Shown: piece by piece, positions 4,184 through 4,407 of the stretch
How positions within the stretch are numbered: the first letter of the stretch is position 1
Layout of the letters: every line of letters begins with the position of its first letter
From: a virus
UHGV virus genome: UHGV-0262291
Strand: one strand, 5' to 3'
DNA length: 11,287 nt
Translations under genes and position numbers: made by a program
Notes under the pieces: generated by a model
Seen by the model: only the letters and a program-made list of their open reading frames with translations
Told to the model about the DNA's origin: nothing
Database searches by the model: none

Positions 4184-4288
4184 TCAGTTCCCTAGTCGAT
4201 CCATCAAAAACACAACCTGGCAGTAAACGCCCACAACAGCAACAACAGCCAGCGCACCTTCCATTGCCAGTGATATATCATCCGACAT
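4184..4288 (-). CDS. Small hydrophobic peptide, 34 aa (not in the ORF track)
   Basis: ATG at 4288 preceded by AAGGAGGG 3-4 nt upstream; translation MSDDISLAMEGALAVVAVVGVYCQVVFLMDRLGN has a hydrophobic core of about 20 residues; TGA stop at 4184..4186. Confidence 0.4.
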   Translation of the reverse strand: MSDDISLAMEGALAVVAVVGVYCQVVFLMDRLGN

Positions 4289-4323
4289 ATTCCCTCCTTT
4301 GGTGTTAATCCCGGCGAACGTTT

Positions 4324-4407
4324 TTACCCCCACCGACAAATAACATATACTAAAAAAGCGATAGCCATAGCAACGCCTGTAATTGCAAATGCTTCAGGCC
4401 AGTTCAT
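4324..4407 (-). CDS. Small hydrophobic peptide, 27 aa, translationally coupled to the upstream gene (not in the ORF track)
   Basis: ATG at 4407 overlaps the TGA stop of the 4404..5273 gene (ATGA); AGGAGG 8 nt upstream; translation MNWPEAFAITGVAMAIAFLVYVICRWG; TAA stop at 4324..4326. Confidence 0.4.
   Translation of the reverse strand: MNWPEAFAITGVAMAIAFLVYVICRWG

Follow-up and report, generated by a model that had tools for sequence, protein, structure and literature searches.

The window analysed here, that is the whole stretch of 11,287 nucleotides (nt) from the virus genome UHGV-0262291, represents the early-right and immunity region of an E. coli lambdoid prophage. We have focused on two small open reading frames (ORFs) of its minus strand, ORF A and ORF B, with 27 and 34 codons respectively, which lie between the gene of a 289-amino-acid (aa) DUF551 protein and the hok/mok/sok locus (Table 1). 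An original prediction had described them as two small ORFs preceded by strong Shine-Dalgarno (SD) sequences, each peptide being dominated by a single hydrophobic stretch, and had counted three small membrane-peptide genes within about 600 bp when hok was included; all this was borne out by the analysis, the span together with the hok coding sequence (CDS, 3782-3937) being 626 bp. The prediction had also regarded both ORFs as unlisted, which is true for the ORF track it relied on, but ORF B has been annotated by RefSeq in an identical genome. On the whole it is probable that both are real genes encoding single-pass inner-membrane peptides and that they belong to the accessory cargo of the early-right operon, ORF A as a translationally coupled gene and ORF B as a cassette.

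Two short hydrophobic reading frames upstream of hok

In each of the two peptides an uncharged run of 19 residues was found, and the mean Kyte-Doolittle value over the best 17 residues was about 2.5 for both ORF A and ORF B, compared to 2.9 for the Hok helix. Both peptides have the attributes of small single-pass membrane proteins, namely one segment of membrane-spanning length and a frame under purifying selection, and their C-terminal tails (RWG, three residues, in ORF A and DRLGN, five residues, in ORF B) contain no charged domain. On the two strands of the whole 11.3-kb window there are four GGAGG-N3-9-ATG sites opening at least 20 codons, whereas 0.86 +/- 0.92 were expected from shuffled sequences, therefore such sites are more frequent than chance would allow. 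They belong to ORF A, to ORF B, to a 70-aa ORF at 5800-6012 which is annotated as hypothetical, and to a 92-aa ORF starting from 10953, the latter two being also on the minus strand.

A Pfam scan (E <= 10) and searches with PHROG, NCBIfam and PADLOC gave no Hok/Gef, toxin, holin, defence or other family for either peptide; weak matches to the POT family and to PHROG 38566 were rejected as hydrophobic noise or mis-started copies. No RNA family was detected over 4184-4407 in the Rfam scan.

Table 1. Positions of the features discussed, in the coordinates of the window
Feature	Position	Strand	Description
Upstream gene	4404..5273	-	Mosaic 289-aa Ea22/EaA-like protein with C-terminal DUF551; intact ORF
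SD sequence AGGAGG of ORF A	4415..4420	-	7 nt before the ATG; within the last codons (Q-E-V) of the upstream gene
ORF A	4324..4407	-	ATG 4407-4405, 27 sense codons, stop TAA 4326-4324; 27-aa single-helix peptide MNWPEAFAITGVAMAIAFLVYVICRWG
ORF B cassette	4144..4328	-	175-bp insertion relative to phage 933W, by alignment
SD sequence AAGGAGGG of ORF B	4292..4299	-	3 nt before the ATG
ORF B (type B1)	4184..4288	-	ATG 4288-4286, 34 sense codons, stop TGA 4186-4184; 34-aa single-helix peptide MSDDISLAMEGALAVVAVVGVYCQVVFLMDRLGN
Perfect 22-bp palindrome CGATATGGGAATTCCCATATCG	4154..4175		Between the ORF B stop and the hok -35; central EcoRI site
Inferred hok promoter	4114..4141	-	-35 TTGCGG 4141-4136, spacer 16, -10 TAGAAT 4119-4114
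hok/mok/sok type I toxin-antitoxin locus	3782..4107	-	hok CDS 3782-3937, mok 3782-3994, leader/sok 3932-4107
Q antiterminator	1086-1907	-	ORF A and ORF B lie upstream of it

ORF A and its coupling to the upstream gene

The ATG of ORF A overlaps the TGA stop codon (4406-4404) of the 289-aa DUF551 gene in the form of ATGA, exactly as had been predicted, and the AGGAGG announced in front of it is also present, only its spacing has to be corrected from 8 to 7 nt. A stop-start overlap with an open upstream frame was observed in all the 184 copies of ORF A which had enough flanking sequence (168 with ATGA, 16 with TGATG or TAATG), where the presence of the ATG has to be read with the fact that the scan pattern itself required it. 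Only N, T, S and I occur at residue 2, all with codons beginning with A, as the preservation of the upstream TGA requires. A GGAGG-like motif stands 7-10 nt upstream of ORF A in most of the junction classes, across differing upstream tails, and the 933W class has the weaker SD-like motif AGAAGG. By its conserved stop-start overlap and its SD sequence inside the upstream gene ORF A forms a translationally coupled pair with that gene.

The proteins encoded upstream of ORF A are strongly mosaic and of the Ea22/EaA type, their function being unknown (PHROG 60, 660, 924, 1621), and at least four unrelated C-terminal modules were recognized among them. The 289-aa protein of the window matched PF04448 (E = 4.9e-19, residues 220-285) and PHROG 60/924, which are groups of unknown function. 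One and the same ORF A allele was found behind at least five different upstream C-termini and before at least six downstream contexts, namely hok directly, the ORF B type of the window (B1) followed by hok, its sister type (B2) followed by hok, DUF4222-xis-int, terminators and others.

Inspection of the Ea22/EaA/DUF551-type proteins in seven of the loci, L045 among them, and in others revealed a small set of shuffled modules: an N-terminal ITKERLL...ARIALASLEAEPV, GWNACRAAML, SGNFRENKNSSTNNFREI linkers, DFDGDRRGIGDCLDE, and a tail which is either DUF551 or KLPDKAMDYLKRNGLISVEDILR. The N-terminal module is present in the lytic phage Av-05 as well. In the identical genome the annotation pipeline PGAP has cut the uninterrupted 289-aa ORF into an 'incomplete' pseudogene and a 62-aa CDS (L001 5705-5893 and 6158-6574), and the DUF551-type gene is split comparably in other strains; the mosaic build of such proteins has probably misled the annotation.

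Frame conservation across related phages, which the original prediction had proposed as a check, was found for both ORFs, their frames being under purifying selection. The consensus of ORF A is M-[NTSI]-W-P-[ED]-A-F-x3-G-(hydrophobic)-[YF]-x-[IVL]-[CF]-R-W-G, with MxWP[ED]AF..G..Y.[IV]CRWG as the short family pattern. M1, W3, P4, A6, G11, R25 and W26 are invariant in an alignment of seven sequences; the scan pattern itself prescribed W3, P4, A6, R25 and W26, and the pattern-free tblastn matches keep these residues too. For codons 7-24, which are outside the search pattern, the ratio of nonsynonymous to synonymous substitution rates (dN/dS) was 0.31, whereas the other sense frames gave 0.58 and 1.75; the in-frame ratio ranged from 0.27 to 0.31 across analyses. 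The codon entropy was 1.00 at the third position versus 0.55 and 0.32 at positions 1 and 2.

It could be argued that the 84-nt block of ORF A is a recombination linker or a ribosome-retaining device, in which the sequence of the peptide is irrelevant, since it sits exactly at the mosaic junction, a single allele joins many upstream and downstream modules, and the SD-bearing QEVNQ tail accompanies it even where the DUF551 gene is truncated. The mainly third-position substitutions, the low in-frame dN/dS and the seven invariant residues (five of them also pattern-fixed) argue against such a device; furthermore the length is fixed, as 135 of 138 pattern matches terminate after exactly 27 codons with a pattern which left the stop unspecified, the peptide is kept although the nucleotide identity falls to 71-79%, and ORF A remains intact where the upstream gene is frameshifted. 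We regard the linker or ribosome-retaining device as quite improbable.

Still harder to believe is that ORF A would be a C-terminal membrane anchor joined to the DUF551 protein by ribosomal frameshifting. The frame of ORF A is indeed open for 26 codons upstream of its ATG in the window (25 back to a GTG at 4482), and a few databases carry 45-52-aa versions of it. This open upstream stretch, however, varies from 1 to 49 codons (with an outlier of 210) and has only 5 in the 933W class, while the ATG is found in every scored copy, as the pattern demanded, and an SD-like motif precedes most of them. No slippery site was noticed, although no systematic search for one was made. Taking these together, the frameshifted anchor has an extremely low probability.

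ORF A is a new, widespread 27-residue predicted small membrane peptide of phages which has been systematically missed by annotation. It is not annotated in any RefSeq, phage or plasmid record inspected, and a few old GenBank entries do list it (e.g. ETJ68712.1); in-frame extended protein queries of ORF A and ORF B retrieved only a few close E. coli entries. With tblastn ORF A was detected in 92 phage records, which comprise Shiga toxin (Stx) 1 and Stx2 phages including 933W and VT2-Sakai, other lambdoid phages and the lytic Vequintavirinae phage Av-05; vB_EcoM_TH18 (134 kb) has it as well. It is also present in 196 plasmid records (Escherichia 166, Salmonella 29, Klebsiella 1), mostly of 85-120 kb and non-mobilizable, and these large plasmids are probably phage-plasmids. 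A degenerate DNA pattern for ORF A matched at least 120 IMG/VR contigs, and among the GTDB species representatives only Escherichia and Shigella, plus two tiny contigs. The latter two, labelled as Xanthomonas pisi (L016, 431 bp) and Acinetobacter idrijaensis (L019, 369 bp), carry sequence of E. coli Stx phages or phage-plasmids, ORF A included, and are probably contaminations of non-enterobacterial assemblies.

The peptide strings of ORF A and ORF B were not found in the literature text searched, and they are absent also from the supplements of an Enterobacteriaceae microproteome study, of two EDL933 ribosome profiling (Ribo-seq) papers and of an EDL933 transcription start site paper. In the ea22 literature searched there was no mention of a small downstream ORF. 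The K-12 Rac prophage has no homologue, therefore the initiation-profiling data from K-12 are uninformative here.

The ORF B cassette, its translation and its sister type

In contrast to ORF A, ORF B is already known as an annotated hypothetical membrane protein with Ribo-seq support. Its exact CDS has been annotated by PGAP in the identical genome (strain AST46) as the hypothetical protein WP_160372272, and near-identical copies are annotated in many enterohaemorrhagic and enteropathogenic E. coli genomes (WP_001278454, to which ORF B is 97% identical, and WP_001278460), the relatives being 94-100% identical overall. The exact sequence and its cluster occur in about a thousand or more contigs. 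Residue 23 is Q in the allele of the window and L in most relatives. ORF B corresponds to ECs_5710 in prophage Sp6 of O157:H7 Sakai (UniRef A0A0K4X2R1), which is likewise flanked by a DUF551 gene and hok. The accessions of ORF B are uncited in the literature searched. The family is narrow, with six representative clusters, all close relatives, among 1.84 billion proteins. No tblastn match was obtained for ORF B in the phage collection, which may be due to deposited genomes having the cassette-free arrangement of the 933W type, or to masking of the query by the low-complexity filter.

A tandem duplication of ORF B with a 107-bp unit was noticed in O55:H7 RM12579 (L004 1985-2196), and also in DEC5D and TB182A; the second copy has a TTG start directly after the first stop, lacks an SD sequence, and PGAP labels both copies as WP_001278454.

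A translation signal for ORF B, which the original prediction had asked for, was found in published Ribo-seq data, where the ORF enclosing ORF B was reported as the novel translated gene XECs145 (Hücker et al. 2017, PMC5597208). In lysogeny broth at 37 C its transcriptome value was 79.1 and its translatome value 346.1 reads per kilobase per million (RPKM), with a ribosomal coverage value (RCV) of 4.35 and a coverage of 0.99; in brain heart infusion the corresponding values were 121, 150, 1.14 and 0.84, and translation was near nil under cold and osmotic stress (PMC5597208). The same study predicted XECs145 as an inner-membrane protein with one helix (PMC5597208). ECs1517, which stands two genes upstream of XECs145 in the same operon, reached only 25 and 49 RPKM, thus ORF B is expressed above its neighbours in the uninduced culture. 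The dN/dS of ORF B was 0.18 within B1 and 0.25 within B2, while the other sense frames gave 0.8-2.7.

The cassette which carries the SD sequence, ORF B and the 22-bp palindrome extends from the stop codon of ORF A to a point shortly before the hok -35 region. The direct repeats GGTAAAAACG (10 nt; 4328-4319 and 4153-4144) form its borders, the first of them holding the ORF A stop. The palindrome would form a stable RNA hairpin, and with minor variants it is conserved in the B1 loci. As an intrinsic terminator it was rejected, having neither a U-tract nor a call by the terminator scanner; it could be a protein-binding site or an element for the 3' end or the stability of an RNA.

The same slot is occupied in other phages by the B2 cassette, which encodes (M)LVLKCALAIAAVMAIYCLVIVLMDHLSD, a peptide of 29 aa with 44-47% identity to B1, and was recognized in eight of the loci (e.g. 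L045 3340-3520). Its conserved start is a GTG after GGAG; the 'codons' upstream of this GTG vary non-conservatively, and an ATG there is lost in some copies. Further upstream a TTGAAG and a CATATT hexamer are kept at a fixed spacing of 17 nt while the spacer between them is divergent, which is the signature of a real promoter, therefore B2 appears to carry its own sigma-70-like promoter, with a leader of about 30 nt. B2 was also met in the same region of another prophage, where queH and a DUF1971 gene flank it and both ORF A and hok are missing. Of 5426 complete E. coli genomes, 350 carry it at this prophage site; it is unannotated in the eight RefSeq rows listed.

These features have a bearing on whether the cassette is mainly a nucleic-acid element, in which the palindrome would act for instance as an insulator, an RNA 3' end or a protein-binding site before the hok promoter and the ORF would be incidental. 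The position of a perfect and conserved palindrome abutting the hok -35 region, and the direct repeats at the borders of the cassette, are in line with this proposal. B2, however, keeps its peptide in the same slot without any palindrome and is found away from hok too, and ORF B is translated according to the Ribo-seq data, so that we consider the element without a functional peptide very improbable.

The original prediction had likened both peptides to small membrane-active toxins, and in its strongest form this would mean that ORF A, ORF B or both are killers of the type I toxin kind, depolarising or permeabilising the inner membrane in the style of Hok, TisB or Ldr, and forming a cluster of three toxins with hok. 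Their small size, their single hydrophobic helix, the adjacency of hok, and the own promoter and short leader of B2 would all suit such toxins. A sigma-70-like match in antisense orientation lies at the start of ORF B (TTGCCA-16-CATATT, plus strand 4264-4291), and another consensus-level match just after B2 (TTAACT-18-TAAAAT, L045 3549-3520, minus strand); they were the only hint of an antisense RNA, which was rejected for ORF B since such matches would be expected by chance and B1 and B2 do not share them. The translation of type I toxins is normally silenced. The high ribosome occupancy of ORF B in exponentially growing lysogens (RCV 4.35) is hard to square with a potent toxin, and ORF A is coupled inside an operon, with neither promoter nor leader of its own. 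Considering also that the family searches and the Rfam scan gave nothing of toxin or type I RNA character over either ORF, the toxin-like interpretation found no support and killing activity of either peptide is unlikely.

Genomic setting, probable role and comparison with known systems

Positions 2086-11287 of the window are 99.9% identical to strains AST46 and DLI.5a. The LexA-like repressor gene is on the plus strand, and all the other genes discussed are on the minus strand in the order of cro, a YdaT-like gene, a replisome organiser, DUF977, several small genes, the 289-aa DUF551 protein, ORF A, ORF B, hok/mok/sok, DUF968, RusA, the Q antiterminator and a methylase fragment. Since the two ORFs lie between the replication genes and DUF968/RusA/Q, they belong to the delayed-early operon upstream of Q and are not near the lysis genes. 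Holins are encoded in the late lysis cassette by the endolysin, downstream of Q, and have a transmembrane domain followed by a highly charged hydrophilic C-terminal domain. The holin-like character which had also been suggested for the two peptides is therefore not supported: they are encoded upstream of Q and far from the lysis cassette, end in RWG and DRLGN, and match no holin family.

In the neighbouring hok locus the Rfam scan identified RF01794 (sok/hok leader) at 3932-4107 with 121.7 bits, and the hok CDS carries the label hokD in the RefSeq annotation of the identical genome. The position of the hok promoter was deduced from the sequence, the known 5' end of the R1 hok mRNA and the Rfam match starting at 4107; an equivalent site, TTGGCG-17-TAGAAT, was called by the promoter scanner in locus L045. 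With this promoter ORF A and ORF B would stand outside the hok transcription unit. Beside hok, the 59-aa plus-strand hypothetical protein WP_001112740 (3561-3740) partly overlaps a 90-aa minus-strand gene (3342-3614), and one of the two may be spurious.

Both peptides are best described as predicted single-pass membrane microproteins: the coding status of ORF A and ORF B and the translation of ORF B are based on data, and their insertion, topology and partner, that is their location and action, are what we infer. Ribosomes which finish the Ea22/DUF551-type gene at the UGA would restart at the overlapping AUG of ORF A by termination-reinitiation, presumably assisted by the SD sequence inside the last codons of the upstream gene. 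Because its start is coupled to the upstream stop, ORF A should be made whenever that early gene is translated, and its appearance is expected with the early-right operon after induction or infection, or with the early-left operon where the ORF A module precedes xis-int. An N-out, C-in helix is predicted from the acidic MNWPE end and the basic RWG end of the peptide. The alternating small residues G11/A13/A15/A17 may serve for helix-helix packing with itself or with another membrane protein, and as far as the sequence allows to judge this binding is the most likely mode of action of ORF A. ORF B would be a separate 175-bp cassette, placed between the stop codon of ORF A and the hok promoter, having a strong SD sequence and being translated in growing lysogens; since the B2 sister type appears to have a sigma-70-like promoter of its own, the family would behave like a moron. 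Rather than killing or lysis we would expect an accessory role in the lysogen or in the early phase, for instance in exclusion or in modulating a membrane protein of the host.

Several points weigh against the view that both ORFs are genuine membrane-peptide genes. A dN/dS of 0.27 was obtained for one antisense frame of ORF A as well; such a low value is to be expected where wobble positions coincide, and no plus-strand ORF of at least 20 codons is listed across 4200-4407 in the window. The pairwise dN/dS values were calculated on 18-33 codons and are rough, and the sequences compared come mostly from Escherichia phages and are phylogenetically non-independent. The common O157 allele of ORF A, MIWPEAFAITGVAIAIDFLVYVICRWG (L142 4344-4427, Sakai Sp6, and 31 other copies), has an Asp17 in the middle of the helix, perhaps as a functional variant, perhaps because constraint on the peptide is relaxed in the lineage concerned. 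With its 27 aa ORF A is under the 30-aa cutoff of the Sakai translation study, and the XECs145 coverage of 0.99 takes in the last 25 nt of ORF A with frames not resolved. Sakai contains several near-identical copies of the region, so the Ribo-seq reads may be multi-mapped. Finally, the promoter scan of the window identified none for the B1 cassette.

It is also conceivable, if somewhat unlikely, that the ORF A family is an obligatory companion, by translational coupling, of the hypervariable Ea22/EaA/DUF551 genes, acting as an effector or as a membrane tether for their proteins, and that the slot between ORF A and hok is a hotspot for further membrane-peptide cassettes (none, B1 or B2). If this were true, ea22-type phenotypes, for example the bias of Stx phages in the lysis-lysogeny decision attributed to the exo-xis region, would be partly polar effects on ORF A.

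Deletion of an ea22/DUF551-type gene in Shiga-toxin phages would abolish the coupled ORF A too, which makes it a possible confounder. The addition of ORF A would correct many annotations in RefSeq E. coli genomes, in Stx phages such as 933W and in plasmids. As for ORF B, it indicates that the region just upstream of a prophage hok accepts small membrane-peptide cassettes expressed in lysogens, with possible effects of these peptides on the physiology of the host or on phage exclusion. It should be emphasized that current concepts are left unchanged by these findings, small phage membrane proteins and stop-start coupling being both well known.

Among known systems XECs145/ECs_5710 of Sakai Sp6 is the same as ORF B, from which nothing essential differs. 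Hok/Gef (PF01848) with Sok resembles the two peptides in that it involves small single-helix inner-membrane peptides, and hok itself is encoded next door. ORF A and ORF B differ from it by having no sequence similarity, no mok-like leader ORF, no fold-back mRNA and no detectable antisense RNA; moreover ORF A is coupled to an operon gene with its start overlapping the upstream stop, which leaves no place for a leader, and ORF B is translated in growing cells. KdpF, AcrZ, MgrB, MgtS and MgtR are host-encoded proteins of less than about 50 aa with one helix, which bind larger membrane proteins. ORF A is similar to them in size and in its alternating small residues, which are typical of helix-packing faces, and neither ORF A nor ORF B is homologous to them. 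Prophage morons and superinfection-exclusion membrane proteins, such as lambda SieB/RexB, T4 Imm and HK97 gp15, some of which are expressed from the prophage, are likewise products of accessory phage genes, and the apparent own promoter of B2 is a moron-like feature; SieB/RexB, Imm and gp15 are much larger, unrelated in sequence to ORF A and ORF B, and PADLOC gave no match. The coupled gene pairs of phages (ATGA/TGATG) have the same geometry as ORF A, which in 184 of 184 copies starts at the stop of the preceding gene, usually with an SD-like motif in the upstream CDS; what distinguishes ORF A from these pairs is its length of only 27 codons and its persistence behind a hypervariable gene whose C-terminal modules are many and unrelated.

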